Source: an uncultured Acidimicrobiales bacterium (GTDB lineage: Bacteria; Actinomycetota; Actinomycetes; Mycobacteriales; QHCE01). From it: a DNA stretch of 64,000 bases. The translations under genes and the position numbers were made by a program. The notes under the pieces were generated by a model, which worked only from the letters and a program-made list of their open reading frames with translations, was not told the DNA's origin and made no database searches. How positions within the stretch are numbered: position 1 is the first letter of the stretch; every line of letters starts with the position of its first letter. The DNA lies in the NCBI GenBank assembly GCA_963736285.1, contig CAVTOA010000003.1:281652-345651 (forward strand), in the 5' to 3' direction. Positions 12,308 to 39,226 of the stretch are shown in pieces.

Positions 12308-12853
12308 CTAACTCGACGTTGGTGCGCTCGCGAGCCAGCGCAAAACCGCTTTTTGGTAGGTGATAGAGAACTCCAAGGTGGCAACCTGAAAAGCGTCGCC
12401 TTCTTTCTTCGCCTCCTTGAGCTGCTCCTTGAGCTCCTCAAGCTTGGCATCGCGTGCCTGCGTCTGTGACTCGTAAAGCTCACGGAGCTGCTTAGCGCTG
12501 TGCTGGCCCCCGAACGCTGCCCGCAAAAGCAGCGGGTTTCGAAGCTGATCGCGGCCCGCAGGCTCGCCGAGCCACCGAGTAAAGGCACGCTTACCCGCAG
12601 CAGTGATCGAATACGGTTGGGAAGACCGCGGTCCCGGCTTGCCGGTACGCACGTACCCCGCCTCAGCGAGCAACGGCAGTTCCCGGTAGACCTGACTACG
12701 GGTAGTGGTCCAGAACGGACCCAAACGAGCCTCAGCCGTGGCCATGAGCTGGCCCCCGGTCATCGCTCCATCGTGGAGTAGCCCAAGCAGGGCAGCTGCT
12801 GTCGCATTAAGACCTTTGTCCGCCATACCTACACGCTGCCACGTTATTGCCAC
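12308..12853 (-). CDS. PadR-family transcriptional regulator
   Basis: Winged-helix PadR signature (LLGLLHDGAMTGGQL ... SQVYRELPLLAEAGYV ... YSITAAGKRAF) and a C-terminal coiled-coil. Confidence 0.8.
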   Translation of the reverse strand: MAITWQRVGMADKGLNATAAALLGLLHDGAMTGGQLMATAEARLGPFWTTTRSQVYRELPLLAEAGYVRTGKPGPRSSQPYSITAAGKRAFTRWLGEPAGRDQLRNPLLLRAAFGGQHSAKQLRELYESQTQARDAKLEELKEQLKEAKKEGDAFQVATLEFSITYQKAVLRWLASAPTSS

Positions 12854-12873: not shown

Positions 12874-12886
12874 TTCCACTGTGGAT
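12874..12886. promoter_or_regulatory. palindromic operator candidate upstream of the PadR gene
   Basis: TTCCAC-T-GTGGAT (ATCCACAGTGGAA on the gene strand), 20-35 nt upstream of the PadR ORF start. Shares ATCCACAG with the 13-mer box. Confidence 0.35.
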
Positions 12887-14576: not shown

Positions 14577-14666
14577 GCACGCCTCCTTCATTGGGAGTAC
14601 AAATAGGATTGATTGACTGCACAGCGTAAAGGAAATGACCGACTGAGTGAGACCGCTGACTGCGCT

Positions 14667-14681
14667 CTGTGGATAACTCCC
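14667..14681 (-). promoter_or_regulatory. conserved box GGGAGTTATCCACAG upstream of flp
   Basis: Reads GGGAGTTATCCACAG on the gene strand, about 90-105 nt upstream of the flp start. The same 15-mer occurs at 17963-17977. Confidence 0.6.
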
Positions 14682-15663: not shown

Positions 15664-16526
15664 TGTAATACTCGCTTCTCTTCAGGCAAACGGCCAATGC
15701 GAACCATTGCGCGATAAGCAAGGATGCTCACAACTGCCCCAAGTAACAGCAGAATTCGGCCCGCAAAAGACTCGTACGCGCTCAAAGTGGCCGACTGAGT
15801 CGCAAGGAGAAGCAGCACGAGCCAAGGGGCAGCGACCGCAAGGCGAGCAGCATTAATGGTCCAATTTTGACGAGTCTCAAGCTCGGCGCGGGTACGACTC
15901 TCGTCACGCAGAAATGTCGATAGAGTCCGTAACAGCCGACCTAAATCTGTTCCCCCTACTTCGCGTGCGAGCCGTAACGACTCGCAGATCCGATCACCAA
16001 CGGGATCTGCGAGGTGAGTCTTGAGCCGATCGAGGCAATCCGAAAATTTGCCGGTAATTCGGTAATCGCTGGCAAAGCGGCCGAATGCGGCCTGGAGGGG
16101 CGCTGGACCCCGTACTGCCAAAGCCGCGACACCTTCTGGCAAGGAGAGGCCCGCGCGGACGGCGGACGCCAGACTGTCCACAACCTCCGGCCATACCTCG
16201 CGGAAATCAAGTCTGCGCCTTCTTCTTAGGCTACCGATCATCCCGACAGGAGAGAAAAACCCGAAGAATACAAAGCATGTGGCCACCGAGATGCTCCGGC
16301 TCAATGCCAACGTCGCCATACCTGCTAGCAAGCCCGCTGCCAGCTGTAGGCACATGACCTGCCACGGGCCCACTCCTGTGATTCCTGCTTGCCGCAGTGC
16401 TGCGGTTCGTCGCGCTTTCCACTTCGCAAGAGAGTCGGGTCGCTCCGGTCGCACGGGCGCACGACTGTGCCACACAAGCAGTACACCCAAGCCAAACAGT
16501 AACCCGATGACGGCGCCCATTAGCAC
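15660..16526 (-). CDS. tadB: pilus assembly membrane protein TadB
   Basis: 288 aa polytopic T2SSF-like protein. Overlaps tadA by 7 nt. Confidence 0.8.
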   Translation of the reverse strand: MLMGAVIGLLFGLGVLLVWHSRAPVRPERPDSLAKWKARRTAALRQAGITGVGPWQVMCLQLAAGLLAGMATLALSRSISVATCFVFFGFFSPVGMIGSLRRRRRLDFREVWPEVVDSLASAVRAGLSLPEGVAALAVRGPAPLQAAFGRFASDYRITGKFSDCLDRLKTHLADPVGDRICESLRLAREVGGTDLGRLLRTLSTFLRDESRTRAELETRQNWTINAARLAVAAPWLVLLLLATQSATLSAYESFAGRILLLLGAVVSILAYRAMVRIGRLPEEKRVLQ

Positions 16527-17881
16527 TCACCATCTCCCGCCGAAACAGAAGTCACCCGATATTTCGGCTCACTTCGGACAGCGTTGAGCAGCCGGACGAT
16601 ATCGATGCCCGCCCGGGTGAACCGCTCCATATTGGATGGGAAGCCATCTGCTCGTACGAGCTCATTGCCTCGAGTCGCAAAGATGTCGACTGATTCGATG
16701 ACTGTGCCCTCAACCCTGCCAGAGAGGGCTACGACTTCCCCTACTCGCCGCCTGCCCTGACTATCGCTGGTGAGGTGAACCACCAGATCAACACTCGCCG
16801 CGACAGTCGGGACAACGAAAGAGGCCGCGACATTGCTGCCTGCCAGCAGCGGGAGCGTACACAGTTTGGTAATCGCTTCTCGGGCTGAATTGGCATGGAC
16901 ACTCGCCATCCCCGGTAGGCCAGAGTTCAATGCTATGAGCAAGTCTAAGCACTCTGCTTGGCGAACCTCACCAACAATAATTCGCGAGGGGCGCATTCGG
17001 AGGGCTTCGCTAATGAGTCTGCGAAGAGGAATCTCCCCCGTTCCTTCCAAGTTTGGCTGACGCGTTTGCATCGGCACCCAATCCCGGGCATTTAGCCGTA
17101 GCTCAAAGACCTCCTCACAACTGATAATTCGATCATGCTGCGGAATCGCACCAGCCAAGCAATTTAAAAGAGTTGTCTTGCCGGCTTGAGTGCCCCCAGC
17201 CACAACGACATTGAGCCCAGCAATTACCGCCGCCTCTAGGAAACACGCTGCGTGCGCGGTCATAGTTCGAAGTGCGACCAGCTCCGTGAGGGACCGGGCT
17301 TTCACGATGAACTTTCGGATATTGACTGCCCAATGTTCCCGTGTGATGTCAGGTATGACTACGTGCAGGCGAGAACCATCTGGCAAAGTGGCATCAACAA
17401 ACGGGGTAGAAAGGTCAATGCGCCGCCCGGTGTGTTTAAGCATCCGTTCGACCAGCTCAGTTACCTGTTGGTAAGTGAGGACAACTGTTGTCAATTCGCT
17501 GCGATTATTGCGCGAGATAAAAACGTGACCGGGATCGTTGATCCATATCTCCTCGACTTCTGGATCGTCCAAAAACTGTTGCAAAGGACCGAGACCAGCA
17601 ACGGCGTCAAAAAGCATTTTTGCAACGCACTCGGCGTCAGACAGGGGCGGCGATATGCCCGCAGCAGCTTGTGTCGCATAGTCGACGATGGCCTGATCAA
17701 TTAGTGCGCGCACTGTGGCGGGCTCACGGGCAGGGTCGATGCCGTCGCGTCGGATCAGCTCATGTAGCACTGACTCCACAATGGCATATGAACCTACGGT
17801 GTTCTCTGCCCTTGTGTGACCTACATGGGCCCGTGATGCAGACTGCTTCGAGATACTGGTCAACGTGTTGGTTAATGCCAC
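16520..17881 (-). CDS. tadA: Tad/Flp pilus secretion ATPase TadA/CpaF
   Basis: 453 aa. Walker A GGTQAGKTTLLN, a CEEVFEL region and a RIIVGEVR box typical of VirB11/CpaF ATPases. Confidence 0.9.
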   Translation of the reverse strand: MALTNTLTSISKQSASRAHVGHTRAENTVGSYAIVESVLHELIRRDGIDPAREPATVRALIDQAIVDYATQAAAGISPPLSDAECVAKMLFDAVAGLGPLQQFLDDPEVEEIWINDPGHVFISRNNRSELTTVVLTYQQVTELVERMLKHTGRRIDLSTPFVDATLPDGSRLHVVIPDITREHWAVNIRKFIVKARSLTELVALRTMTAHAACFLEAAVIAGLNVVVAGGTQAGKTTLLNCLAGAIPQHDRIISCEEVFELRLNARDWVPMQTRQPNLEGTGEIPLRRLISEALRMRPSRIIVGEVRQAECLDLLIALNSGLPGMASVHANSAREAITKLCTLPLLAGSNVAASFVVPTVAASVDLVVHLTSDSQGRRRVGEVVALSGRVEGTVIESVDIFATRGNELVRADGFPSNMERFTRAGIDIVRLLNAVRSEPKYRVTSVSAGDGEC

Positions 17882-17962: not shown

Positions 17963-17977
17963 GGGAGTTATCCACAG
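17963..17977 (+). promoter_or_regulatory. conserved box GGGAGTTATCCACAG upstream of the FtsK-like ATPase
   Basis: In the 254-bp tadA/FtsK-like divergent intergenic region, about 160-173 nt upstream of the GTG start at 18136. Identical to the flp box, and both share the preceding CCGCA. Confidence 0.6.
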
Positions 17978-18135: not shown

Positions 18136-21100
18136 GTGGAATTCCCCATCACTTTCGTGGACTCTTGCGGCGATGAGCATGACCTAACTATCTCTGCGGC
18201 TCACACCACGACTGCGCAGGCCCTCGTGGAAAAGCTTCGCGAAATCGACCCGGACGCCCGCATCGACCGGCTTTACCATCCACAAGGACAATTGCGGGCC
18301 ACCCAGCGCATAGGAGAGCCACCCCTCATAGCCGGAATTCGACTCCAGGCCATGCCCGTCGTCTCGTCACGTGAACCGTCTACTACAGACAAGAAGCGTC
18401 AACGCCTCACCCTCACGGCTTCCCAGGACTTAACCTGTTCTCAATATCCTCCTCATGGCTCGCTACTGCTCCATGTCATAGCAGGACCAGACAGCGGCCA
18501 GGTACACCCGCTCACAAGCCGTAGGGCTACCACAGACAAAGCCCGGAAGTCGACTTCTACATCAGACAATTCGCGCAGCATCACGGTTGGCCGCAGCGAT
18601 TGCGCCGACGTTTCAATTGAAGACCCAGATGTATCGAGTCTTCATGCAAAGATAACAATTCGACCCGGATCTCTGCAGCTATCTGACTTGGGCTCAACCA
18701 ATGGCACGACGTTACAGGGAAGAGCCATTGATGGGCCTGTTGAGCTGTGGCCAGAACAGGTTATTCGGTGCGGCGGAAGCTTATTTGTAGTCTCGACATC
18801 GACATTCCCACCATTGCAACTCAGACCAAACCGCTCTGGCTTTTTGATGCTTGGAAGGCCACCTAGGGTCACTCCTCGCCATGTGCCTCCGGAGTTCAGT
18901 TTTCCTGCTCCCCCAATATCCCCACCTCGCACTCCCATACCGTGGCTATTGGTGATTACACCTTTGCTGATCGGAACTGCCTTCTATTGGATTAGTGGAG
19001 CATTACATGGCGATGGCGCGTACTTTCTTTTGCTCACTTTCCTCTCTCCTCTCATGGTTTTTCTCGGTGGACTAACCGACAAGATTGCTCGGTTTAAGGC
19101 TCACCGAAAAGCAATGTTGCGGCACAATCACGTTGTCGCCGATATAACGCAGGGGATAGCTGCTGCGGTCAGCGACGAGCAACAACGGCTGAGAACCGCA
19201 TTTCCCAGTCCCGCCTTACTCTTCCTCGTGATCTGTCACAGAAATTCGCGCCTGTGGGAACGGCGGCCGCGGGATCACGACAACCTGGTGCTTAGGGTTG
19301 GAACAGCAAACCTCCCCTCCGGACTGCGGATTCATGGAGAAACTGGCAACCGCACTCGCCAGCCGGTGAGCTTGCTTGCCTCACACCGGAAACCTCGGGA
19401 GGCACCCTCTCGAACCCTGGCAAGCGTGCCGGCCACGGTGCCACTCCGTGACGTGGGTGTGTTCGGAGTAGCAGGGCCGAGCCGCCTCGGAGTGGTCCGC
19501 TTCCTTGTCGCGCAACTGGCCGGACTCCACCACCCCAAAAATCTTCGCCTAGTGCTACTGGCAAATAACGACGCACCACAGCGCTGGAAATGGTTTCGGT
19601 GGTTGCCACACGCTGCCACCTCTGGCTCTCATCCGAATGGAGCAACCTTCCACATAGGACTATCGCCAGCTCAAAGGAACAGCAGAGTCGGCGAGCTTGG
19701 ATCGCTCATCACGGAGCGCATTTCCCACGACCCAGAAACGCTCCGGCAGCCAAACCATCACGGGCTCGTAGTGCGGCCAAATTATGTCGTGGTAATCGAC
19801 GACGCTGACCTGCTAAGAACCGAGGAAGGCGTTGCTCGCTTACTCATCGACGGCCCGCGTGTTGGAGTCTATGTGATCTGCCTCACCGAAGATTCGCTGC
19901 GCCTTCCTGAAGAATGCGATGCAACTCTGATCACTACTAATGCACCGGGCGAAGGTGCGACCCTACAGATCCGAAATCAGGCGACTCTATCGTCGATCAC
20001 CACCGAGTCTGTATCCCCAGATTGGACGGACACCATTGCGCGCGCATTGGCTCCACTCCACGACGCGGCCCCTGAAGAGGACCACCTTGACCTACCGCCC
20101 CAAGTCTTCCTAGAGGCGTTCTTGTCAGAGATTCACGCCAGGCACCGCGTTTACGTTGAAGCGCGCACCCCTTCCCGCAGACACTGGTCCAAAGCTCATC
20201 AGTCGCATGTCGAGCCATTAGTGCCGGAGAACGTGCACCAGCATTGGCTCGATAAGCCACGCTCATCGCTTGTTCCGGTCGGCATTGGCTCGGCCGGAAC
20301 GGTCGCTATCGACCTCATAAAAAACGGTCCACACGCTCTGATCGCAGGAACGACAGGGTCAGGAAAGTCGGAACTTTTGCAAACCATCATCCTTGGATTG
20401 GCCCTGGGTAATCACCCTCACGAGCTTTCTTTCATACTCATTGACTACAAAGGTGGCGCGGCTTTTTTCGAATGCGACGACCTGCCACACACGGTTGGGC
20501 TTGTCACCGATCTCGACAGTCAATTGACGAGACGTGCTTTGTCCTCGCTTCGGGCGGAGCTACGAAACCGGGAAAAAATCCTCGCGGCTCACCAGATGAA
20601 AAACCACGAAAGCTACTGCATCGCACGCGACCAGGCCTCGCCGCATACACAACCGCCCCGCGCTCACACTTCTACCTGGCCTCACATGGCCCGTCTCGTC
20701 ATCGTTGTCGACGAGTTTGCCGCACTGGCTCAAGAACTCCCTGAGTTCATCACAGGGCTTGTCGACATAGCGCGACGCGGACGTTCTCTAGGAGTGCACC
20801 TCATCCTCGCAACTCAACGTCCTGCGGGCGTGGTTTCGACGGAGATCCGTGCGAACACCGCGCTCCGAATGTGCCTGAGAGTGAACGATCCAGCTGAAAG
20901 TAGCGACGTCATCGGGGCAGTCGATGCCGCTCAACTCAGTCACACGCGGCCTGGTCGTTGTTGGATCCGGACCGGCAATACGTTGCAGCAGGTACAAGTT
21001 GCCTACGGCGGTGTCACTCCCCCCGTCGCCACAAGTGCCTCAGATGTCGACATAAGACATATGCCGTGGGAGGCGCTAGGAGACTCCTTGCAGGAGTTCA

Positions 21101-22824
21101 GCTCGTCGGGCCTCGCAAACGAAAGGGAGGCGGACGCCACTCGAATTGTGTCCACTCTTCGGCTTGCCGCAGCGCCTATCGCACCTCTGCCAAGCCCGTG
21201 GCTACCACCGCTTCCTCGCTTGATCACTCTTACTGAGCTGCTGACTTATTCCGGGAGGCCGCATTCACGCCCCGACTCCATCGATCGCGAGTCTCGGTGG
21301 TGCCTGGCTCCTGTTGGCTTACAGGACATACCTGACGAGCAACGGCGTGCTCTCTACGGACTGTCTCTACGCGGCTCTGTGAGATCCCCCGCCAGCCAAG
21401 ACGGCACCCTATCCAGTGCAGTGCCACTACCTGCGGCAACGAGCGCAGGTGGACCGTCAGATGCGGTGCACCACATCATGTTTGTTGGCGGACCGCATAG
21501 CGGGAAGACATCTGCGTTACGAATGCTGGCAGTCAGCGCCGCACAGTTTGCGACGCCCGAAGAGATGCAGATCTACGTGCTGGACTGTGCAAACGGCGAC
21601 TTGGCTGACCTCGAATATTTGCCCCATTGTGCTGGCATCGCCCACCATCTAGATCTGGAACACGGCGAGCGTTTGCTATACAGCCTGGCAAAAAACACAT
21701 CAACGATCGCGCCGGCAGACCGCCGTGGCGACAAGCCGGCAAAGATACTTCTGATCGACTCTTGGGAGGGTTTCTCTGAAAGCTATGGGTCTGTCGGCCA
21801 TGGTGAGCTCATGGACCTGCTTGGCCTCCTCTTGAGGACCGGTCCGTCCGCCGGAGTGCGGGTGGCAATAACAGGCGGCCGCGCTCTGGCAACAGCTCGG
21901 TTTGCAAGCCACATCACTGAGCGACTCATCCTGCCCTTCGCTGATGTGGACAGCTACTGTTCCCTCGGAGTCCCGAAAGACCAGATCCCCACCAACCCAC
22001 CCCCTGGCAGAGCTTTACGCATGGGTAGACAGATTACCGAAATTCAGCTCGCCGCCACCCAGGCAGTGCCACAGGCCGATCAACGCTCCCAAAAGGAGCT
22101 CGGACCCCGACGAATGATGCCCCTGCCTCAGCACGTAAGACTAGAGGAGCTTGAGCCCCAAGTAGAGCGAGCTCCTCACGCGGCGACACCTGCCGTAATT
22201 TTGGGCATCGGTGGTGAATACGCCCAACCGTTCCAGATAAACTTCGACGACATTACCTCCGGATTGTTGGTGGTCGGTCCACCAGCAAGTGGGCGTACAA
22301 ATACACTTCGGCTCTTTGCACACGCTGCCAGTCAAGCAGCTCGCCAATTTTTTGTCATTTCTTCCCAGAAAACAGAATGGCAGCTGGGGCAAGCGGATAT
22401 ACAACACTCCTATGTGGCCTCTCACCGAGAACCAACGGATGGCCATTGCTTCAGTACAAGCGGCATAGCCGAGCTGGAAAACGCCTTGAAAACGCAAGCG
22501 ACCAAACCCGCGATCATTATCGTCGACGACGCTCAACAGCTCCTGGACACTGAAATGGGAGAACGGCTGTCCACCCTCGCACGAACCGGTGAGCACACAG
22601 TGATTGCGAGTGTCGCCACAGAGGACTTACATAACGCTTTTCGGGGACTCATTCACGAACTACGACGCGCCCACACCGCACTTCTGTTATGGCCCAAGTA
22701 CCACGATGGCTCTCTCTTCGACCTGCAACTAAGTCGCGCAATTGGCCTGCGCTACCCAGGGCGTGGGCTCTACATCGCGCGCGGAAACGCCACACCCATA
22801 CAGCTCGCCCGCATAGGAAGCTGA
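18136..22824 (+). CDS. FHA-domain FtsK/SpoIIIE-family (EssC/EccC-like) membrane ATPase with four P-loop-type domains
   Basis: 1562 aa. FHA-like segment (ITVGRSDCADVSIEDPDVSSLHAKI...GSTNGTTLQG) and two TM helices (IPWLLVITPLLIGTAFYWISG, YFLLLTFLSPLMVFLGGL). One degenerate P-loop domain (GVAGPSRLG ... VVVIDDAD) is followed by Walker A GTTGSGKS with IVVDEF, GGPHSGKT, and GPPASGRT with IIIVDDAQ. Confidence 0.85.
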   Translation: MEFPITFVDSCGDEHDLTISAAHTTTAQALVEKLREIDPDARIDRLYHPQGQLRATQRIGEPPLIAGIRLQAMPVVSSREPSTTDKKRQRLTLTASQDLTCSQYPPHGSLLLHVIAGPDSGQVHPLTSRRATTDKARKSTSTSDNSRSITVGRSDCADVSIEDPDVSSLHAKITIRPGSLQLSDLGSTNGTTLQGRAIDGPVELWPEQVIRCGGSLFVVSTSTFPPLQLRPNRSGFLMLGRPPRVTPRHVPPEFSFPAPPISPPRTPIPWLLVITPLLIGTAFYWISGALHGDGAYFLLLTFLSPLMVFLGGLTDKIARFKAHRKAMLRHNHVVADITQGIAAAVSDEQQRLRTAFPSPALLFLVICHRNSRLWERRPRDHDNLVLRVGTANLPSGLRIHGETGNRTRQPVSLLASHRKPREAPSRTLASVPATVPLRDVGVFGVAGPSRLGVVRFLVAQLAGLHHPKNLRLVLLANNDAPQRWKWFRWLPHAATSGSHPNGATFHIGLSPAQRNSRVGELGSLITERISHDPETLRQPNHHGLVVRPNYVVVIDDADLLRTEEGVARLLIDGPRVGVYVICLTEDSLRLPEECDATLITTNAPGEGATLQIRNQATLSSITTESVSPDWTDTIARALAPLHDAAPEEDHLDLPPQVFLEAFLSEIHARHRVYVEARTPSRRHWSKAHQSHVEPLVPENVHQHWLDKPRSSLVPVGIGSAGTVAIDLIKNGPHALIAGTTGSGKSELLQTIILGLALGNHPHELSFILIDYKGGAAFFECDDLPHTVGLVTDLDSQLTRRALSSLRAELRNREKILAAHQMKNHESYCIARDQASPHTQPPRAHTSTWPHMARLVIVVDEFAALAQELPEFITGLVDIARRGRSLGVHLILATQRPAGVVSTEIRANTALRMCLRVNDPAESSDVIGAVDAAQLSHTRPGRCWIRTGNTLQQVQVAYGGVTPPVATSASDVDIRHMPWEALGDSLQEFSSSGLANEREADATRIVSTLRLAAAPIAPLPSPWLPPLPRLITLTELLTYSGRPHSRPDSIDRESRWCLAPVGLQDIPDEQRRALYGLSLRGSVRSPASQDGTLSSAVPLPAATSAGGPSDAVHHIMFVGGPHSGKTSALRMLAVSAAQFATPEEMQIYVLDCANGDLADLEYLPHCAGIAHHLDLEHGERLLYSLAKNTSTIAPADRRGDKPAKILLIDSWEGFSESYGSVGHGELMDLLGLLLRTGPSAGVRVAITGGRALATARFASHITERLILPFADVDSYCSLGVPKDQIPTNPPPGRALRMGRQITEIQLAATQAVPQADQRSQKELGPRRMMPLPQHVRLEELEPQVERAPHAATPAVILGIGGEYAQPFQINFDDITSGLLVVGPPASGRTNTLRLFAHAASQAARQFFVISSQKTEWQLGQADIQHSYVASHREPTDGHCFSTSGIAELENALKTQATKPAIIIVDDAQQLLDTEMGERLSTLARTGEHTVIASVATEDLHNAFRGLIHELRRAHTALLLWPKYHDGSLFDLQLSRAIGLRYPGRGLYIARGNATPIQLARIGS

Positions 22825-25867: not shown

Positions 25868-26905
25868 TTAGACCCTCACGCTAGCGAGCTGCTGGCGAAG
25901 TAGCCGCAATGACGTTTCCTGAGCCACCTCGATAACGAGAGACCTACGCGACACGTCCATCAAGTTCGCCCCCATCGCCGTCAGATCATCCAAACCCGGG
26001 CACAGTACGTATACCTTGGCGCCGCTCCTTATGATGTGCTCCATCTCTCGACGCAAACGCCGCGTCACCGAACGCCTCCATCGACGCTCAAGACGTGCCA
26101 ACATTCCTGTCGGTGAATCCAATGCAAAGGCCGCCAGCGGTGCTACTACATAGATCTCATCCAGATTCTCTTGTGCGAGCAAATCTGCTGACGTCGACGA
26201 ATACATTCCGCCATCGACGTAACGTCGCCCATCAATGTCGACCGGTGTAAACCAGCCAGGAATGGCACACGAGGCTCCGACCGCCGCCGGCAACGAGGGA
26301 AACGGCGAGCCAGCTCGCCCGAATGCCACTCGCTCGCCAGAGTCGTAATTCATCGCCACTATCCACAATGCGGGATGCGGCGCCCATGTGCGTTGTGGAC
26401 CCAGGGCCAGTTCAACGATGTCCTCGATCGGCGCCAGAGAACCACGCCCAAGGGGCAACAGTGCCGACAGGGCCGCACGCGGCGTAATGCTTCGAGGATT
26501 GCGCAAAGCCGTGAGCAACAGCCTCATAGAACCCGGGCGCAAATGAGGCCGGCTAGGGCGTGGACGTCCTCCGTTGAGCTCATCGTTGTAGTCGATGAGG
26601 AAGTCGCCCGGCGCGGGCGCACCCATCTGTTGACGCAACATCATTGGCACTGATATGCCGCAGCCCAGCACGGATCCCACAAGTGCGCCAGCTGACGTGC
26701 CGACGATGATGTCGACTTGCCGGCAGTCTAAGCCCGTGGATTTTTCTAACGCGGCCAGCGCCCCTACCATCCAGGCATACCCGAGAACACCTCCACCGCC
26801 GAGGACAAGACCGCGCCGTACTTGATCTCCGTCTACCACGGTCTCATCTTCCCCCTCGTCACGACGGTTGCGCGGAAAGGCGCCGCCTTTCCTGGCTGCT
26901 GCCAC
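25868..26905 (-). CDS. patatin-like phospholipase
   Basis: Oxyanion GGGGVLG, nucleophile elbow GTSAG and catalytic DGG motif. Confidence 0.85.
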   Translation of the reverse strand: MAAARKGGAFPRNRRDEGEDETVVDGDQVRRGLVLGGGGVLGYAWMVGALAALEKSTGLDCRQVDIIVGTSAGALVGSVLGCGISVPMMLRQQMGAPAPGDFLIDYNDELNGGRPRPSRPHLRPGSMRLLLTALRNPRSITPRAALSALLPLGRGSLAPIEDIVELALGPQRTWAPHPALWIVAMNYDSGERVAFGRAGSPFPSLPAAVGASCAIPGWFTPVDIDGRRYVDGGMYSSTSADLLAQENLDEIYVVAPLAAFALDSPTGMLARLERRWRRSVTRRLRREMEHIIRSGAKVYVLCPGLDDLTAMGANLMDVSRRSLVIEVAQETSLRLLRQQLASVRV

Positions 26906-28175
26906 CGGACATCAGTGCCGGGGATCCGACCAATGACTCGGCAATCTGGGCGAGACGCACCCGAAGACGAGATTCTGGCGCTACCTCTGCAAGGGTTCGC
27001 CCTACCGCCACCGCTCGATCCGCCGCCAGCTGATCGTGAGGCAATTGCTGCGCATTAATGACTCCCGCATACCGCTTTAGCGCAGCCATTACCTCCTGCT
27101 CCGGATCGCCGGGGACCACACCACGGCGGGTCTTATTAACCACCACGTGGCGTGTCGTATCGGGCACTATCCCCGCTAACTCGTCCAGACCCCGGATCAG
27201 CCTGCCCATGCCCACCGGATCAGCCGCTCCGACCGCCACCACAATGTCAGAAGAAGCCAAAGCCGCCAATGTGGCTCCATTACGTCTAGGTGCCATAGTG
27301 TCGTAGGACAGTTCTTCGTCTGTCTCTAAGCAAAATCCGCAGTCGATGACAGTGAACGCAGCAAGCTCCCGCGCTCGAGCCAGCACCGCCATCAACGAAT
27401 CCGGACGCAGCTCCACCCACCTCTCAGGTCGCGTAATTCCCGTCAAAACCCTCAACTGAGGATGGATAGCCCTGGCCAAGCCGGCGAGTGCTGGTATGTC
27501 TAGCGCACCATTATTGGCCAAGTGAGCTGCGGCAGCGATGCCCGGCGCCTCGTCCAGCATGCTAAGCATTTGGGCAATCGTCCCCCCATAAGAATCCGCA
27601 TCTATCAGTAATGTCGGAACGCCCAATCGAGCGGCTTCATCCGCCAATCCGATTGCCAGAGTGGTACGGCCGGGTGCACCGGTCGGACCCCACACCGCTA
27701 CTACTCGTCCCGGTGCCGCAGGTGAAATTGGACCACGGTTGTCCGCAGGTAGAGACGCTGAAAAGAGAGCCGCTCGAGGGTCGGCTGGCATGTGTCGCGC
27801 AGACGAAGGCCGCATTTGTGCCGCACCCCGAATAAGAGCTTCTGCCACAAGCGCTGCTGGAGATCGCAAAGGCAAGACCTGCGTCAGACCCAGTTGACGT
27901 AGCCGCCGCTCCCCCGCTTCGTCGTGTGCATCGACCAGCCCCACGATGGCGACGCCGGCCGCATATAGCCGAGTGAGTATCTCGTGATCGAGATGTCGAA
28001 GGTCCGCGGAGAGCAAGGCCGCACGCGCAACGCCGACCGATGCCGTGGCTAGAAGATCCGCAACGTCAGCACATCTGCGCACTACGGCAATCCCATGCTC
28101 GGCTTGACCCAGTGCGGTGACCAAGGCAGCCTCGAGCTCGGCATTAGTGACGGCGGTCAGTACTGGCAAATCCAT
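26859..28175 (-). CDS. CpaE/TadZ- or Ssd-like ParA/MinD-family ATPase
   Basis: N-terminal receiver-like domain followed by the deviant Walker A VVAVWGPTGAPGRTTLAIGLA. Resembles M. tuberculosis Rv3660c in its tad context. Confidence 0.75.
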   Translation of the reverse strand: MDLPVLTAVTNAELEAALVTALGQAEHGIAVVRRCADVADLLATASVGVARAALLSADLRHLDHEILTRLYAAGVAIVGLVDAHDEAGERRLRQLGLTQVLPLRSPAALVAEALIRGAAQMRPSSARHMPADPRAALFSASLPADNRGPISPAAPGRVVAVWGPTGAPGRTTLAIGLADEAARLGVPTLLIDADSYGGTIAQMLSMLDEAPGIAAAAHLANNGALDIPALAGLARAIHPQLRVLTGITRPERWVELRPDSLMAVLARARELAAFTVIDCGFCLETDEELSYDTMAPRRNGATLAALASSDIVVAVGAADPVGMGRLIRGLDELAGIVPDTTRHVVVNKTRRGVVPGDPEQEVMAALKRYAGVINAQQLPHDQLAADRAVAVGRTLAEVAPESRLRVRLAQIAESLVGSPALMSGGSSQERRRLSAQPS

Positions 28176-28214
28176 AACTCTGGCCTTCTTCGTTTAATTT
28201 GCGGTCTTGATCGC

Positions 28215-29057
28215 TCATTGATGAGAAGCCATGTTGTGGGAGCTCCGCTGGTTAGCCGGCACATTGCTTGAAGACGTGGGATGCGTCGGTGGCGGCACGG
28301 ATGCGGAAGAGCTAGCCCTTGGATCCGCTTTAGCGCCGCCCAACTTCGTAGGCTCGCACAATGACGTTCGGGTGGTGGAGCCCGCGGATAGCGTGACATC
28401 GATCTCCGCCGCCCGGACCGCGTTGACAACGCGCGAAGTGGTGTCCGACGCCACCCAGACTGTCAGCGACCATTCGCCTGTGTCGGAAAGACCCGAATGA
28501 GGCGAGGTCACGTCTTGCACGGTGGCGCTCTGCAGTACTCGCTCTGTCTGGCCTGCCCTGTTGTCTCGAGGGCTGGCAAAAACATCGACACGCCGGCCCC
28601 GGGTGACAGAAGGCGGAAGGTGGTGCGATGCCACCGGAATGCTCACCAAGGCACCACAGGCCGCGACACGCAATGCACCACGAGGGATGAGCTCATGCGC
28701 TGACACATCTCTCACCAGTGTCTTTCCGGTCACAACTTGTGTGTCGGCGAAATATTGCGCTGAGCCCCTGGGTAGCCGCACGCTTACTCGTTCAATATCT
28801 GCGGCAGTCAGCGTTGCGCCCGCAGCAGTGTCGTGCCGTACTGCCCACACAAGCGTCGAGTGGTCGGCGGACGCAACAACACGTGCACCGAGAGCGACCG
28901 AGACGAGCAACAGAAGGACACCACACACAAGACGAATGTTGAGCCATGTGGGCATCCGAGTACGGGTGGCGCTAGGAGAGGCGAAGTGCCCCTCACCCGC
29001 CGCACGTAACGGACCCTCCGTTGCTTTGATCGCAGAGGGCGACGACACCTGACTCAT
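28215..29057 (-). CDS. SAF-domain protein (CpaB/RcpC-like pilus assembly protein)
   Basis: Start set at the Met preceded by GGAGAGG (ORF track extends to 29321). One TM helix, then a SAF-like segment (AAGATLTAADIERVSVRLP...VTGKTLVRDVSAHELI). Directly upstream of the cpaE-like gene. Confidence 0.65.
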   Translation of the reverse strand: MSQVSSPSAIKATEGPLRAAGEGHFASPSATRTRMPTWLNIRLVCGVLLLLVSVALGARVVASADHSTLVWAVRHDTAAGATLTAADIERVSVRLPRGSAQYFADTQVVTGKTLVRDVSAHELIPRGALRVAACGALVSIPVASHHLPPSVTRGRRVDVFASPRDNRAGQTERVLQSATVQDVTSPHSGLSDTGEWSLTVWVASDTTSRVVNAVRAAEIDVTLSAGSTTRTSLCEPTKLGGAKADPRASSSASVPPPTHPTSSSNVPANQRSSHNMASHQ

Positions 29058-29378
29058 CGAAATACCTCTCCACACATACTGATTTGCGAGAAAACCTCGG
29101 CCATCCTGCACCATCACGACCAAAGCATCGAAAGTTTTCCACAAGAAGGATGGAAATCGCTTCCCCTGTGGACAGAGGAACCAGAGTCGGCGTAAGTGGC
29201 AAAATAAGGCAGTGCGCGGGGCAGGTTCCCCAACGCACTGACTAACCGCCGTTGCCGGTGGAGCGTTACGGCGCTCCTTCACCCGGACCAACCAGAACCG
29301 CACGGCTACACCAGTGATCATCAGGGAACAAACTGCTGTCTCTGATCAAGCACGGAAGAACAGAAAGCAGAGCCACCC

Positions 29379-29618
29379 ATGAGTTCCGACCGATTCCTTC
29401 AACTCGCCGAGGTAGCCGAAGTGCTCAATATCAGCGCCTCACAGACCTATGCATTGGTTCGTTCGGGAGAGCTACCGGCCATCAAGATCGGCGGGCGTGG
29501 CCAGTGGCGAGTCGAGCGAGACGAGTTAGAGAAATACATCAAGCGGATGTACACGGAGACGCAGAAATTTGTTCGCTCTCACCCGCTCGAACGGGACGAG
29601 GCATTTTCTAGCGACTAG
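29379..29618 (+). CDS. excisionase-family helix-turn-helix DNA-binding protein
   Basis: 79 aa. FLQLAEVAEVLNISASQTYALVRSGELPAIKIGGRGQWRV matches the excisionase/MerR-like HTH pattern. Confidence 0.75.
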   Translation: MSSDRFLQLAEVAEVLNISASQTYALVRSGELPAIKIGGRGQWRVERDELEKYIKRMYTETQKFVRSHPLERDEAFSSD

Positions 29619-31829: not shown

Positions 31830-34660
31830 TTAGACCGCAGTGGGCGCACCGTGGCACTTCTTGTACTTCTTCCCGGAACCACATGGACAAGGCGCGTTGC
31901 GGGACGGCCCATGACCGACTTTCTGTCCGCTGTCCGGAATCTTCTCCCCGGCAGCAAGTGCCGACGAAGGACCACTCGCAACACTGACAGCGGCCAGGCC
32001 GTCATTCTCATCGCCGTCGATGGTGGGCGCGGAGTAACGCAAATGCCGCGGTCGTGATGCACCACCAAGCCCCTTGGCATGTACCTCCACTTTCGGCTCA
32101 GCCTCAGGCTCGGAGGGCTCCTCGTCCAGCTCACCGCCTGCTTGCGTGCCTGTTTCGTCGCCGCTCTGCTCCACATCGACGTCCAGATGGAAGAGGTAAC
32201 CTACGGTCTCTTCTTTGATCGACTCCATCATGGCCGCGAAGAGATCGAATCCTTCTCGCTGATATTCGACCAACGGATCGCGCTGCGCATAGGCGCGCAG
32301 TCCTATGCCCTCTTGCAGATAGTCCATCTCATATAGGTGCTCGCGCCATTTGCGGTCCAGCACAGTGAGCACAACGTTGCGTTCAAGCTCCCGGAGCGTA
32401 TCGGCTCCAAGCTCTTCTTCCCGCCGGTCGTATGCCGCTTGCGCATCCTCTTTGAGCGTACCAACAAGAAAGTCTGGGTCGAGGGAGTCCTAGCCACCAG
32501 CCTCTTCGATGATCTCGTCGATCAGAACGAAATGGGGTACAGCAGTTTGAGATCCGTCCAGAGCTGCTCAAGATCCCAGTCTTCGGCGTATCCCTCGGCG
32601 GTCGCCGCCTAGCACGCGCTCGGCGATGACATCATCGATCATGCCGCGAACTTGATCGGCGATATCCGCGCCTTCGAGCACTTCTTTCCGCTCGGCGTAA
32701 ATAACTTGCCGCTGCTTGTTGAGCACCTCGTCGTATTTCAGGACATTCTTACGAATCTCCGCGTTCTGCTGCTCCAGTTGTGTTTGCGCACCTTGGATCT
32801 GGCGACTGACCAATTTAGACTCGATAGGCACATCTTCTGGCACCCGCAATCCGTTCATCACCATCTCTACCGCGGCAGAATTAAACCGCCGCATCAACTC
32901 ATCTTGCAGCGAGAGGTAAAAGCGCGACTCTCCTGGATCTCCCTGTCGCCCGGACCGACCCCGCAACTGATTGTCGATACGCCGCGAATCGTGACGCTCG
33001 GTCCCAAGCACGTATAGTCCGCCCGCTTCAGCCGACTTGATCGGCCTCGTCAGCGCAACTCTTCTCCCACCGCTCCAGTGTGGATTCCCAGGCCTGTTCG
33101 TATACCTCAGGGTCTTCGTCACGACATATGCCTTGTTGGCGAGCTCCGCCGCCGCCAAGTACTCCGGGTTGCCACCAAGCAGGATGTCAGTTCCACGACC
33201 GGCCATATTGGTCGCAACAGTGACAGCGACTCAGCCGACCCGCCTGAGCGATGATCTCAGCCTCTTTGGCGTGGAATTTAGCGTTAAGAACCTCGTGCCG
33301 AACACCGCGGCGAACAGCATGTCCGAGAGGAACTCCGAGCTCTCCACGCTCACCGTCCCCACCAAAACCGGCTGTCCAAGCTCATTTCGCTCGACAATGT
33401 CTTCGACAACGGCGGTGAACTTTGCCTCTTCCGTCTTATAGATAACGTCGGACGATCCTTCCGCACCATCGGCCGGTGGGTAGGGATCGGTACTACACCC
33501 ATCTCATAAGTCTTCTGGAACTCGGCTCGCCTCGGTCAGAGGCGGTACCGGTCATTCCAGCAAGCTTGTCGTACATCCGGAAGTAGTTTTGCAGCGTGAT
33601 CGTGGCGAGCGTCTGGTTTTCTTCCTTGATCTGTACGCCCTCTTTGGCCTCGATCGCCTGGTGCATGCCCTCGTTGTAACGCCGCCCATGGAGTACTCGA
33701 CCGGTGAATTCATCGACGATGAGCACCTCACCATCAGAGACGATGTAGTCACGGTCGCGCTTGTAGAGCTCCTGTGCTTTAAGCGCGTTGTTCAAGTAGC
33801 TGACCAACGGGGTATTAGCCGCCTCGTACAGATTGTCGATGCCGAGCTGATCCTCCACTTTGGTCACGCCGGACTCTCCGATCCCCACCGTGCGCTTGGA
33901 CTCATCGACCTCGTAGTCAGTATCCCGCTTAAGTCGGGGGATGATGCGGGAGAACTCTTGATACCAGCGAGCCGACTGCTCTACCGGACCAGAAATAATC
34001 AGCGGGGTACGGGCCTCGTCAATCAGGATGGAGTCGACCTCATCGACGATGGCAAAAAATGCCCACGCTGCACAACTCATCTTCGGTCGCACGCCATGTT
34101 GTCGCGCAGATAGTCGAAACCAAACTCGTTATTGGTGCCGTAAGTGATGTCACGCGCGTACTGGTCGCGGCGGTGATCTGGCCGCTCATTGGCAAGGATG
34201 ACACCCAACATCTAGACCCAAAAAGCGATGGACTCGCCCCATCCACTCCGAGTCACGCTGAGCCAGATAGTCGTTAACCGTCATGATGTGAACACCTTTG
34301 CCAGCTAACGCGTTCAGATATGCGGCCGGCACCGAGGTGAGGGTTTTACCTTCACCGGTTCTCATCTCCGCGATATTGCCGAAATGTAACGCGGCAGCGC
34401 CCATGAGCTGGACATCGAAATGGCGCTGGCCAAGCACGCGGCGTCGCAGCCTCCCGCGCGGTCGCGAAATGCTTCTGGGAGCAGATCGTCAAGCGACTCA
34501 CCATCGGCATAACGCTCCTTGTATTATCGGTTAGTTCTTGTAGTTCCGCATCCGTGAGCTCGGTGTAGTCGTCTTCGATGGAGTCGACCGCATCAGCGAT
34601 GCCCTTCAAGCGGCGAATAGTACGGCCTTCGCCGACGCGAAGAAGCCTTTCCAAAATCAC
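31830..34660 (-). pseudogene. secA: preprotein translocase ATPase SecA, disrupted by many frameshifts and one in-frame TAG
   Basis: SecA sequence is spread over at least 6 ORF fragments in different frames (34352-34660, 34186-34437, 33493-34092, 32568-33206, 31830-32372, plus unlisted pieces between them). The C-terminal zinc motif [14 protein letters not shown] is present. An in-frame TAG falls within ...[15 protein letters not shown] near 32490. Confidence 0.85.
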
Positions 34661-35945: not shown

Positions 35946-36725
35946 CTACTCCCTGAGCGGAGCCGCAAGAGTTACCGCACCCGATACCTCGATCTCCACC
36001 GTTCGTAACAACAACGTGGCCTCAGAAAGCGTTGCTCCGCTCGCCACAACATCATCGAGCAACACGAAAGAAGGCTTACCGCCGCTCGTTTCATCGCCTT
36101 GCCCACACCACGGTGATCGCCATCCGGGGCTCGCGCCTCCCCTGTGCCGCAGCACAAACGCCCCACTGATATTTGCCCTCCGTTTCGCTGCCGACAGACC
36201 CACTGAATCTGGCCTGCCATCACGTGCGCGTAGCGGGCACCACAGACGTAGGCGCATGCCGCCCATTCTGAGACGATGAATAGCGTGCCACGCAATCCGC
36301 AACACGTGATCGCCAGCGCGACGGCGCCGTGCTGATCCGCTCGCCGGGATTGGAACAATCACCAAGGGTGTCGCAAGCCACGGTGCACACGTCGCTCGGG
36401 CAATCAAAATAGCCTCCGCTAGCACCCGGCCAAACAATGGTGCGAGTCGATGCGCTTGGTGCTCCTTATATGCCAATAACGCGGATCGAACTGCTCCGTA
36501 ATATCTAAGCGCAGCCATCGCTGGCGGGCCGCCATTCGCACCGAAATGAGCGGCCCGCACTAAGAAAGGCGCCACCCGAACCTGACCCAAACACCTCTCA
36601 CATAGCCCCACTCCGGAGACTGGCGTGGCCCGGTAGCCCTCCGCGAGATATGCGCATCCAAAGCAAGCACGCGGATACAACAAATCCAGCAGCGACTGAA
36701 TCCCAGCAGACAGCAACCCATTCAC
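35946..36725 (-). CDS. comF: ComF-family (ComFC-like) phosphoribosyltransferase-domain protein
   Basis: N-terminal Cys-rich segment (CFGC ... CERC) and a C-terminal PRT motif VLLDDVVASGATL. Positioned as for Rv3242c. Confidence 0.75.
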   Translation of the reverse strand: MNGLLSAGIQSLLDLLYPRACFGCAYLAEGYRATPVSGVGLCERCLGQVRVAPFLVRAAHFGANGGPPAMAALRYYGAVRSALLAYKEHQAHRLAPLFGRVLAEAILIARATCAPWLATPLVIVPIPASGSARRRRAGDHVLRIAWHAIHRLRMGGMRLRLWCPLRARDGRPDSVGLSAAKRRANISGAFVLRHRGGASPGWRSPWCGQGDETSGGKPSFVLLDDVVASGATLSEATLLLRTVEIEVSGAVTLAAPLRE

Positions 36726-36775
36726 CCGTTTAGCGTTCCGTTGATATCTCTATGCCGCTAGTGGCGCGGATAAAA

Positions 36776-36788
36776 CTGTGGATAACTC
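36776..36788 (-). promoter_or_regulatory. conserved box GAGTTATCCACAG upstream of comF, flanked by two TTTTATCCG repeats
   Basis: The gene strand reads TTTTATCCGAGAATTGAGTTATCCACAGTTTTATCCGCG, 52-64 nt upstream of the comF GTG. The 13-mer is identical to the flp and FtsK-like boxes. Confidence 0.55.
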
Positions 36789-36848
36789 AATTCTCGGATA
36801 AAAGCATCGGCGATCAACAAGTAACCGCAGCGCGGCCCTTCTGCCTCA

Positions 36849-38489
36849 TCAACTAGAGCTCTCATCATCCACATCGGATGGTCGCAACGGAATAGGCGAG
36901 CTATCCAACTCAGTACCGACATGCAGCGGAACCGTCAACAGAAACTGCGTTCCATAACCCGGACGACCCCATGCTTGCAGCGTGCCGCCGTGCAATCGTG
37001 CGTCTTCCCAGGCGATGGCGAGCCCTAGACCCGTTCCGCCTGTTTGCCGCGCCCGCGACGGATCGGCGCGCCAAAAGCGAGTAAACACGGAGTCAACGTC
37101 TGCCGGGCGCAGGCCCACTCCATAGTCACGCACAGCCACCGCCACGGCCTCTGAATTCGCCGCAAGCCGCACCACGACCGGTCTTCCTTCGGCGTATTCC
37201 AGCGCGTTCCCCACTAGGTTGCGCAGTACCCGCTCGATCCGGCGGGGGTCGACATCGGCAACGATGCGGGAACTCGGAATCACCGTCTGTAGCTGAATGT
37301 GGTTACGCTCGGCGAGCGGTCTGAGCCCTGCCAGCACACGATCGATCAGTACCGCGATGTCTGTCGGCTCTGGTTCCAGCACTGCGAAGCCGCTGTCGTA
37401 CCTGCTGATCTCCAACAGGTCCGCGAGCAAGGCTTCGAACCGGTCGAGCTCTGCCACCAGCAACTCGGAGCTGCGCGCCGCTTCGATCGAAAACTGATTG
37501 CGCTTGCTATACAAGATCTCCGCGGCCATGCGGACCGTCGTCAATGGAGTGCGCAACTCGTGGGAAACGTCCGAGGTGAATCGGCGCTGCAATCGCGATA
37601 AATCTTCTAGCTGGACGATCTGGCTTTGTAGGTTTGCCGCCATCTGGTTGAACGCTTGCGCCAATTGTGCCAAGTCGTCGGTGCCATGCACCTTCATGCG
37701 TTCCTCGAGCATCCCGGCCGACAGCCGGCTGGCAGTACGTGCCGCCAGCCTCACCGGCGTCACCACCTGATGCGTGACCACCCACGCGATGCCCGTCAGT
37801 AGTAAAGCCAGCAGAATGCCCGTGCCCAGCAACGCCTTGCGCACCAAGTCGATGGCTCGGCTTTCGGCATCGAGCGGGAAGAAATAATAGAGTTGGAACT
37901 GGCCAGCCGCGGTCTCCAACGCGGTACCCACCACCAAAAAGGGGCGATGAGTCCCGCCGTCCAGACTCGTCGATACATATTTGTACGCCAGCGGTTTACG
38001 CTTACCCACCACATCGGACAGTTCACGGGGGATGACCAATGTGTCGGATGCGAATTGCGCCAGATATAGCCGGGGAAGGCGTGAGCTGTGGGTGCTAATA
38101 GCGACCGCAAAATCCGCCGTTTCGGCTCCTCGCGTCGACAAGTTGACTACGACCATGCGCAGGGTGGAGTCGAGGGCTGGATCCGAAGGACCATTGAGCG
38201 TTTGCAGCTGTTGAGCGGCATAACGCTGACCGCTCTTTGCTTCGTCGAGTGCCTGATTGCGTTTGGTAGTCACTAAGCCATGAGCGATTTGGTTCATTAA
38301 TAACAAGCCAAGTATCGCAATCACGACCGCCGAAACCACCAAGGTGGTTGCCACCACCCGAAGCTGAATATTCGCCCGCCACGTGCGCAACGCCCAGTGC
38401 CAGCAAGCCGCGGCCACGCGAGACACCGGCCGAACAGCGGCCATGAGTTTCTCGACAGCGGGCTGGGGTGGGGGGTGCCGGGCGCTCAT
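36849..38489 (-). CDS. mtrB: sensor histidine kinase MtrB
   Basis: Two TM helices, a HAMP domain, H-box FTSDVSHELRTPLT and an ATPase domain. Directly downstream of mtrA. Confidence 0.9.
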   Translation of the reverse strand: MSARHPPPQPAVEKLMAAVRPVSRVAAACWHWALRTWRANIQLRVVATTLVVSAVVIAILGLLLMNQIAHGLVTTKRNQALDEAKSGQRYAAQQLQTLNGPSDPALDSTLRMVVVNLSTRGAETADFAVAISTHSSRLPRLYLAQFASDTLVIPRELSDVVGKRKPLAYKYVSTSLDGGTHRPFLVVGTALETAAGQFQLYYFFPLDAESRAIDLVRKALLGTGILLALLLTGIAWVVTHQVVTPVRLAARTASRLSAGMLEERMKVHGTDDLAQLAQAFNQMAANLQSQIVQLEDLSRLQRRFTSDVSHELRTPLTTVRMAAEILYSKRNQFSIEAARSSELLVAELDRFEALLADLLEISRYDSGFAVLEPEPTDIAVLIDRVLAGLRPLAERNHIQLQTVIPSSRIVADVDPRRIERVLRNLVGNALEYAEGRPVVVRLAANSEAVAVAVRDYGVGLRPADVDSVFTRFWRADPSRARQTGGTGLGLAIAWEDARLHGGTLQAWGRPGYGTQFLLTVPLHVGTELDSSPIPLRPSDVDDESSS

Positions 38490-38506: not shown

Positions 38507-39226
38507 TTAACCCCCGTCGGGGTGTGGTCCAGCGTTGTTTGCCGCACCAGCCTTATAGCCCACGCCCCGCACAGTGAGCACAATCTCTGGATGTTCCGGG
38601 TCAATCTCCACTTTGGCGCGCAACCGTTGCACGTGGACATTCACCAACCGAGTATCGGCCGCATGTCGATAACCCCACACCTGCTCCAACAACAGCTCCC
38701 GGGAGAACACCTGCCGGGGCTTGCGAGCCAAGGCCAGAAGAAGATCGAACTCCAACGGGGTCAATGCAATGGAGTCACCACCGCGAGTGACCTGATGGCC
38801 AGCGACATCAATAGTTACGGGATTAGTTGAGGGCCCAACAGTGAGCGCTTCCTCCGCATGTGCGTCCGGCTGCCTTAGTCGGGCCCGTATTCGCGCGACC
38901 AATTCTTTGGGTTTAAACGGTTTGACTACATAGTCGTCGGCGCCAGACTCTAGCCCGAGAACCACATCGATGGTGTCGCTCTTGGCTGTCAACATGACGA
39001 TCGGCACGCCAGATTCGGCACGGATCGCACGGCACACGTCGATGCCATTCATGCCCGGCAACATCAGGTCTAGCAGGACGATGTCCGGCTTAGTCTCGTG
39101 GAACGCCGGCAACGCACGCTCGCCATCTGCCACGAATAGAGGTTCGAAGCCTTCGCCGCGCAGCACAATGCCCAGCATCTCTGCCAATGCTGCGTCGTCG
39201 TCAACCACGAGTACGCGTACCTTCAT
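38507..39226 (-). CDS. mtrA: OmpR-family response regulator MtrA
   Basis: Receiver domain (VLVVDDD ... LLDLMLPG) plus a winged-helix output domain. Conserved pairing with mtrB. Confidence 0.9.
   Translation of the reverse strand: MKVRVLVVDDDAALAEMLGIVLRGEGFEPLFVADGERALPAFHETKPDIVLLDLMLPGMNGIDVCRAIRAESGVPIVMLTAKSDTIDVVLGLESGADDYVVKPFKPKELVARIRARLRQPDAHAEEALTVGPSTNPVTIDVAGHQVTRGGDSIALTPLEFDLLLALARKPRQVFSRELLLEQVWGYRHAADTRLVNVHVQRLRAKVEIDPEHPEIVLTVRGVGYKAGAANNAGPHPDGG

Follow-up and report, generated by a model that had tools for sequence, protein, structure and literature searches.

A DnaA-box-type repeat cluster upstream of comF and a proposed promoter module shared by DNA-uptake and recombination genes of Actinobacteria

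Several bacteria control competence through a dedicated regulon whose promoters share a box; examples are the K-boxes of ComK in B. subtilis, the cin-box of streptococcal ComX and the CRP-S/Sxy system of Haemophilus. Actinobacteria possess RecA-NDp/PafBC promoters, which follow the pattern tTGTCRgtg-N8-TAnnnT. How transformation is controlled in this group is described as little known in the papers on M. luteus (PMC8467076, PMC12849477). Transformation of this organism requires Flp/Tad pili and comEA/EC (PMC4322843), and where mutants derepress the comEA/EC promoter, their SNPs almost always map to Mlut_14660 or its 5' region (PMC8467076). Mlut_14660 encodes a small, possibly essential HTH_17 protein and lies divergent from a SAF-CpaE operon (PMC8467076).

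A second line of research concerns DnaA boxes, which are well known as transcriptional operators (PMC11317965, PMC8203912, PMC3245932). The double-DnaA-box promoters of E. coli comprise dnaA, nrdAB, polA, purH and mutH/DARS2 (Stringer et al. 2024, PMC11317965), and in vivo E. coli DnaA needs paired boxes at a gap of 2–3 bp (PMC11317965). Clusters of such boxes away from dnaA or dnaN, which the sequence-only reading of the DNA discussed here had considered unusual in their own right, are not so per se, as regulons and clusters of this kind have been described (PMC11317965, PMC3245932). The literature that we searched contained no paper linking DnaA boxes to competence genes or comF in Actinobacteria; the words TCCACAG and TTGTCCACA retrieved primers and unrelated papers only.

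The window, that is the whole 64-kb stretch of DNA that was analysed, corresponds to C3:281652-345651 of a 2.17-Mb genome rated 88% complete. This genome is the sole member of its genus among the genomes compared, and gene calls beyond the window come from a rough in-house ORF script and are approximate. The region between mtrB and comF contains the following features, all on the minus strand:

38507-39226, minus strand, mtrA
36849-38489, minus strand, mtrB
36810-36837, minus strand, two overlapping terminator-like hairpins directly after the mtrB stop and upstream of the boxes
36796-36801, 36780-36785 and 36768-36773, minus strand, TTATCC cores found by sequence scan
36793-36801, minus strand, distal weak box TTATCCGAG, 7/9 consensus matches
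36776-36788, minus strand, strong central box within the 13-mer GAGTTATCCACAG, an exact DnaA box
36777-36785, minus strand, 9-mer TTATCCACA of the strong box, a perfect consensus match followed by G at 36776
36765-36773, minus strand, promoter-proximal weak box TTATCCGCG, 7/9 consensus matches
36732-36737, minus strand, -10-like hexamer AACGCT at conserved spacing
35946-36725, minus strand, comF, ComFC-like, with an N-terminal CxxC motif and a C-terminal phosphoribosyltransferase fold

On the minus strand the 123-nt spacer reads CTTTTATCCGAGAATTGAGTTATCCACAGTTTTATCCGCG, and its stretch next to comF runs into the start codon as ...GATGCTTTTATCCGAGAATTGAGTTATCCACAGTTTTATCCGCGCCACTAGCGGCATAGAGATATCAACGGAACGCTAAACGG-GTG. 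Three direct TTATCC cores are found on the comF strand within 36765-36801, in agreement with the sequence-only reading, which had placed three of them within 40 nt. The strong box ends 51 nt upstream of the comF GTG and 39 nt upstream of AACGCT, which itself sits 6 nt before the GTG (36725); the 13-mer spans 51-63 nt from the start codon, within 1 nt of the 52-64 nt proposed before. The proximal weak box follows 3 bp downstream of the strong one and ends 39 nt from the GTG, so that the two together make up a 'double DnaA box' in which the weak box is the 7/9 partner. The distal weak box begins 16 nt ahead of the start of the strong box, near the position of the distal box in relatives (18-20 nt). 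A scan of the spacer for standard sigma-70 promoters returned nothing, which is expected for a promoter that has no -35. An Rfam search of the same spacer gave no noteworthy match, and a structured RNA or riboswitch was rejected on this ground.

The assignment of the gene itself rests on several features taken together. Matches to ComF families are weak (Pfam Pribosyltran, TIGR00201), the only and best PDB match is ComF of H. pylori (7P0H), and the nearest orthologs are about 40-44% identical with conserved synteny. The protein combines the zinc-finger CxxC with the PRTase fold, and its gene takes part in the mtrAB-(lpqB)-comF-hpf-secA gene order that characterizes ComFC. In Actinobacteria, lpqB normally separates mtrB from comF; this locus has no lpqB, and the LpqB propeller domain (PF10647) was detected nowhere in the 88%-complete genome. 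Two further genes appear broken: secA extends across two or more reading frames (window 32568-34092, SecA domains in ORFs 33493-34092 and 32568-33206), and for comEC (C3:144647-146959) two overlapping frames both match the Pfam model. Either frameshift pseudogenes or indel errors of the assembly would account for this.

The central 13-mer occurs exactly three times in the genome, every time inside the window, and this count in the window was reached in none of 100 shuffles. Its repetition at the pilin gene flp and at a gene previously called FtsK-like is thereby confirmed, with the following surroundings:

14667-14679, minus strand, 13-mer copy between tadC and the flp-like pilin gene
14623-14628, minus strand, -10-like TACGCT of the flp promoter, 39 nt past the end of the box
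16520-17881, minus strand, tadA
17965-17977, plus strand, 13-mer copy in the divergent region between tadA and an FHA-EssC/EccC-like gene
18136-22824, plus strand, FHA-EssC/EccC-like ATPase gene (1562 aa)

The flp ATG lies at 14576 and is directly preceded by GAAGGAGG. The tad/flp operon ends with a PadR-family regulator gene (12308-12853), and 26 nt upstream of this gene AAAAATCCACAGTGGA is found at window 12879-12885, without canonical promoter spacing. Likeness between the three 13-mer copies ends at the box, with dissimilar flanks. The 13-mer was dropped as a specific word, the evidence for it being weak: genome-wide, its GA extension is present at 3 of 14 GTTATCCACAG sites. The functional unit is better taken to be the box GTTATCCACAG, or the 10-11-mer (G)TTATCCACAG. 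TTATCCACAG has 21 copies in the genome; 200 shuffled 10-mers of matched composition average 1.8, which amounts to an enrichment of about 12-fold. Nearly all copies are promoter-proximal, lying within intergenic regions or at their edges. The TTATCC hexamer alone is not enriched in the 64-kb window (11 observed, 14 expected), and the signal therefore resides in the clustering and in the extended box.

The clustering is rare. Three same-strand TTATCC within 40 nt are found at two sites in the 2.17-Mb genome, oriC and comF, and in none of ten Markov-simulated genomes. A genome-wide scan thus gave no support to the idea that the triple cluster is a common intergenic repeat. More generally, we give next to no credence to the view that the similarity arose by chance or stems from a functionless mobile or intergenic repeat. 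The unremarkable frequency of TTATCC in the window would fit it, but the simulated genomes, the enrichment of TTATCCACAG, the lack of anything shared between copies beyond the box and the conservation of box position and orientation across many families do not; the conservation data contradict it.

Which protein would recognize such a box? The 13-mer GAGTTATCCACAG is letter for letter box R4 of E. coli oriC, whose box R1 is TGTTATCCACAG. The replication origin of the present genome offers the direct comparison:

C3:761686-762711, dnaA
C3:761354-762711, dnaA/oriC region, about 443 kb from the comF cluster

Beside dnaA, 11 boxes with at most one mismatch to TTATCCACA are packed into 285 bp, from which it follows that the DnaA box of this genome is TTATCCACA; in oriC it is often followed by G.

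Other repeated words were seen in the same genome. Many copies of TTGTCCACAnnGGACA(A) exist (e.g. C2:83489, C3:337207, C3:478411, C3:882982), in which an inverted repeat TGTCC-N5-GGACA overlaps a DnaA-box-like word; this is probably the operator of some other regulator. A near-palindrome, ATCCACAGTGGA, has at least 15 copies, mostly in coding regions (e.g. C1:25077, C1:26902, C2:45749, C2:60949). At C1:165427-165500, upstream of a gene for an AAA-ATPase (by eye, DUF4143-like), TAATCCACAAAA is repeated four times in direct orientation with a 23-bp period, the fourth copy reading TAGTCCACAAAA; the array may be called iteron-like.

The lpqB-comF spacers of many families of the same order contain one or two nnRTCCACAG boxes in comF orientation, with pairs 18-20 bp apart. 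Among 61 named actinomycete comF loci, which were fetched through MtrA, 31 have a forward TCCACA box no more than 220 nt upstream, mostly at 25-75 nt, against a background of 0.011 boxes per 250 nt per strand. Among the 31 are loci of Streptomyces, Nocardiopsis, Kribbella, Nocardioides, Actinomadura, Geodermatophilus, Intrasporangium and Leucobacter; the Micromonospora, Nocardia, Rhodococcus and Mycobacterium loci showed none in forward orientation upstream of comF. In 26 of 48 loci, 50-52 nt separate the proximal box from the comF start codon; the most frequent value is 51, which is where the strong box of the window ends. In Streptomyces the distance is 39 nt, exactly that of the weak proximal box of the window. 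The triple cluster is real here, as the sequence-only reading had it, but peculiar to this genome: what is conserved is a layout of one or two boxes at fixed distances from the promoter. Boxes are absent from comF, comEA and recA in the nearest relatives of this genome, the members G001 and G003-G005 of its own family.

The strict register with the promoter bears on the suggestion that the cluster is a site of DnaA titration or reactivation (datA/DARS-like) or modulates initiation, with no role in comF transcription. It is, oriC aside, the sole site in the genome with three same-strand TTATCC in 40 nt, and B. subtilis does control initiation with box clusters outside oriC (PMC3245932). Titration would not, however, be expected to fix the orientation of the boxes and their 39-nt and 51-nt distances across families and promoters, and two of the three boxes are weak. 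As dnaA/oriC is about 443 kb away and the cluster keeps strict promoter register, we regard this explanation as unlikely.

The architecture of the promoter becomes apparent when 62 promoters of relatives (comF, comEA, recA) are aligned on the proximal box. In this alignment a -10 hexamer begins 39-40 nt past the box; it reads TAGCGT at comEA and recA and nAsGnT at comF, and the -35 position contains no information. At comF and comEA the start codon follows 6 nt past the -10, a spacing that predicts leaderless mRNAs for both genes. The present genome keeps the same spacing at comF (AACGCT), flp (TACGCT), comEA (TAACGT), recA (TAGCGT) and many others: a hexamer nAnnnT is found at +38 to +41 in 18 of 34 TT[AG]TCCACAG sites, where about 1.3 sites would be expected per single offset and about 5 over the four. 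Relative to the start, the proximal box is predicted at about -60 to -52 and the distal one at about -79 to -71, both oriented along transcription. Such a position and orientation on promoters that have no -35 suggest an activator-type (class I) site.

Boxes of this kind are by no means confined to the three genes from which the repeat was originally known. In this genome they are usually direct pairs 17-19 bp apart with canonical -10 geometry, at the following loci:

C3:147950, comEA-comEC, canonical box geometry
C1:26901 and 26919, yraN-comM-dprA, canonical box geometry
C1:84826 and 84844, recA, boxes followed by a RecA-NDp-like TGTCGTAG-N8-TAGCGT and adjoined by a LexA box
C3:203657, ssb paralog, canonical box geometry
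C3:528766, Ssd/CpaE-TadA 'helicase/secretion neighbourhood' locus (second Tad-like), canonical box geometry
C1:31976, M23 peptidase, canonical box geometry
window 29166-29175, SAF-like gene divergent from an HTH_17 gene, canonical box geometry

Boxes with canonical geometry also precede flp, glmU, dapF, a geranylgeranyl reductase and others, while boxes of no fixed geometry occur at the dnaA promoter, dnaB, gyrA, topA, nrdJ and the EssC-like gene. The regulon predicted from these positions is much wider than comF, flp and the ATPase gene. The earlier notion of a competence-like regulon is supported by comEA-comEC, yraN-comM-dprA, recA, ssb and the Tad loci, but the regulon is not one of competence only, as dnaA, dnaB, gyrA, topA, nrdJ, glmU and dapF carry the box as well. 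Likewise, the proposed sharing of a cis element with a membrane translocase is right as far as the box is concerned, but the gene encodes an FHA-EssC/EccC-like type VII secretion ATPase, and its box has no -10-like hexamer at the canonical distance. A box pair with TAGCGT is also present at C3:938045-938070 between a dinG/YoaA-like helicase gene and a WXG100 gene, where it points into the 3' end of the helicase gene. Taken with the box of the EssC-like gene, this pair hints at a tie between the boxes and a type VII secretion system.

The same module is recovered in relatives of the same order, where, of 20 genomes compared at comEA, 19 show one box or more and 16 a direct pair. Forward boxes precede recA in 25 of 30 genomes and stand immediately before TTGTCGGTG-N8-TAGCGT. 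In five named genomes the signal at comEA is weaker: Pseudarthrobacter has a single degenerate box at the canonical site together with TAGCGT, Nocardioides and Kribbella have a single box each, and Kocuria and S. boninensis have no box in the expected orientation. The recA upstream region of the present genome (C1:84800-84920) stacks a LexA SOS box CGAACACCTGTTCGA, the DnaA-type box pair and the RecA-NDp-like promoter. A second motif, TTTTRTCCG, was considered as a companion of the boxes and discarded, as it is unassociated with the regulon genome-wide and its recA copy overlaps the LexA SOS box. We also noted inteins in recA, nrdJ and gyrA.

The breadth of this distribution weighs on another candidate, the response regulator MtrA. 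Its gene lies just upstream, so the repeats adjoining mtrA-mtrB could be its operator, and mycobacterial MtrA binds both direct repeats and oriC (PMC6265350). The published motif, a GTnAC-type 9-nt repeat with 2-nt spacing and an 11-bp period (PMC6265350), does not fit TTATCCACAG spaced by 12, 16 and 18-20 nt, and the same boxes recur in oriC arrays and at numerous loci that have no relation to mtrAB. An MtrA operator was rejected on the basis of this motif and is highly improbable.

We favour DnaA as the binder of the boxes, at a probability of roughly 0.5. Several considerations speak for it. The box is identical with those in oriC of this genome and with E. coli R4, and replication genes carry the same box including G10 (dnaA promoter, dnaB, gyrA, topA, nrdJ). 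Regulon and oriC boxes of 29 relatives have common flanks (G0, Y1, Y2, R3, TCCACA, G10), so that their flanking preferences are equal, and comF has a double box of the E. coli type. A second protein with DnaA domain IV was dismissed as binder, since the genome encodes one such domain and no other was found.

The spacing between boxes fits less well. Regulon pairs are 18-20 bp apart (gaps of 8-11 bp), as opposed to mostly 12 or 9 bp between oriC boxes of the same genomes, and a DnaA-specific 19-bp spacing that was looked for in oriC is absent, oriC favouring 12 and 9. Together with the 2–3-bp gap of E. coli, this implies that the paired layout differs from known DnaA-DnaA geometry. Moreover, position 2 of the proximal boxes is loosely conserved while G10 and A11-T12 are strong, which could reflect another protein or promoter constraints.

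This other protein may be encoded nearby, about 7 kb from comF:

29379-29618, plus strand, HTH_17 (BldC/excisionase-family) protein of 79 aa, the candidate alternative binder
28215-29059, minus strand, SAF-like gene divergent from the HTH_17 gene
29135-29143, plus strand, box TTTTCCACA in the region between the two
29166-29175, minus strand, box CTGTCCACAG, convergent with the former

After the SAF-like gene comes one of 438 aa, which has no Pfam match; the whole locus occupies 26859-29618 of the window. Under this alternative, a dedicated competence regulator reads the boxes, the prime candidate being the HTH_17 protein as ortholog of Mlut_14660, bound head-to-tail to direct repeats, and the likeness to DnaA boxes is a coincidence or a means of competing with DnaA. 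It is the main rival of DnaA and, in our view, somewhat less likely. The mapping of comEA/EC derepression to Mlut_14660 in M. luteus (PMC8467076) speaks in its favour and at the same time counts against DnaA, as the mutations sit in the HTH_17 gene and not in dnaA. The ortholog is 54-79% identical across families, compared with about 40% for ComF, is syntenic with comF, and in about 20 of 30 cases has boxes in its own upstream region, which would fit autoregulation. BldC-family proteins bind head-to-tail direct repeats with a 9-bp unit, two of which make 18-19 bp (PMC5859096); the boxes are indeed direct repeats in the orientation of the gene, and the 18-20-bp spacing of the regulon is unlike that of oriC.

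Against this stand the BldC consensus AATTnnnnC and its contiguous 9-bp units (PMC5859096), which do not resemble boxes with a TCCACAG core, repeated 12-20 bp apart with unconserved spacers. Any protein of such specificity would bind oriC too, given that the flanking preferences equal those of the oriC boxes. In addition, seven genomes from four families (four of them rated 100% complete) have no ortholog and keep boxes at comEA and/or recA, a persistence that favours DnaA; four genomes of the window's family keep the ortholog and have no boxes at comF, comEA or recA. The latter also counts against DnaA, which is universal. The idea that the HTH_17 ortholog is an obligate partner of the boxes thus failed in both directions, in a co-occurrence test on draft genomes in which paralogs exist.

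With DnaA as the preferred binder, the following picture can be drawn. The TTATCC cluster would be the upstream operator of the comF promoter, with an optimal DnaA box GTTATCCACAG centred near -56 from a leaderless start and weak boxes one turn downstream (3-bp gap) and 16 nt upstream, all along transcription. The core promoter, with its -10-like AACGCT and no recognisable -35, would probably depend on a box-bound protein in the manner of class-I-type activation. One module of one or two boxes, the proximal one ending 38-39 nt before the -10, would drive a conserved actinobacterial DNA-uptake and recombination regulon, and DnaA binding would couple both processes to replication status. The sequence, the geometry, the conservation and the regulon membership are observations; the binder, the sign of regulation and the transcription start are what we infer from them. 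A bolder version, to which we give somewhat less than even odds, casts DnaA as the master switch of actinobacterial competence via the -55/-74 boxes, perhaps with a BldC-family competitor, activating or gating the -35-less promoters of the Tad pilus, ComEA/ComEC, ComF, DprA, SSB and RecA.

A conserved box at a fixed position before nearly all DNA-uptake and recombination genes provides an experimental handle on the control of transformation in Actinobacteria, and a practical predictor of competence regulons in members that cannot be cultured. If DnaA is the binder, replication status would control gene uptake and recombination phylum-wide and the DnaA regulon would extend to competence. If it is a BldC-family protein reading DnaA boxes, cross-talk with origin firing would be implied.

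How does this arrangement compare with the systems introduced above? As in the DnaA promoters of E. coli, consensus TTATCCACA is found outside oriC and upstream of DNA-metabolism genes, and the central and proximal boxes of comF reproduce the combination of a consensus box with a 7/9 partner 3 bp away. In E. coli the DnaA regulon extends to nucleotide synthesis, replication and repair, and in the present genome boxes are found at nrdJ, dnaB, gyrA, topA and recA. Unlike in E. coli (11-12 bp), actinobacterial pairs are usually 18-20 bp apart start-to-start, and the boxes are fixed at -55/-74 on -35-less promoters that serve the whole DNA-uptake machinery, with DnaA binding predicted. The DnaA-box clusters and the replication-stress regulon of B. 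subtilis (PMC3245932, PMC8203912) are likewise intergenic and off oriC, with some of them regulating their neighbours, but those clusters consist of many boxes and act mainly in DnaA titration, whereas here one to three boxes stand in strict promoter register.

The window shares with M. luteus the divergent arrangement of HTH_17 and SAF genes (Mlut_14660, 14650 and, encoding CpaE, 14640), and the gene classes required for transformation there, Flp/Tad and comEA/EC, are classes that have boxes in this genome. The M. luteus study (PMC8467076) defined no operator sequence; here, a box is defined. Two Micrococcaceae were checked, namely the Pseudarthrobacter with its single degenerate comEA box and the Kocuria with none.

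At recA of relatives, the box pair lies directly upstream of a RecA-NDp/PafBC-like TTGTCGGTG-N8-TAGCGT. The comF, comEA and flp promoters have no TGTCRGTG element, comF showing GGCATAGAGATATCAACGG before AACGCT where recA has the element; the boxes form a separate upstream module.

Finally, as in the regulons of ComK, ComX and CRP-S, one short box at a fixed position unites genes for the pilus, ComEA/ComEC, ComF, DprA, SSB and RecA. Unlike the boxes of those regulons, the one described here is the site of the replication initiator, and it is also present at replication genes and in oriC.
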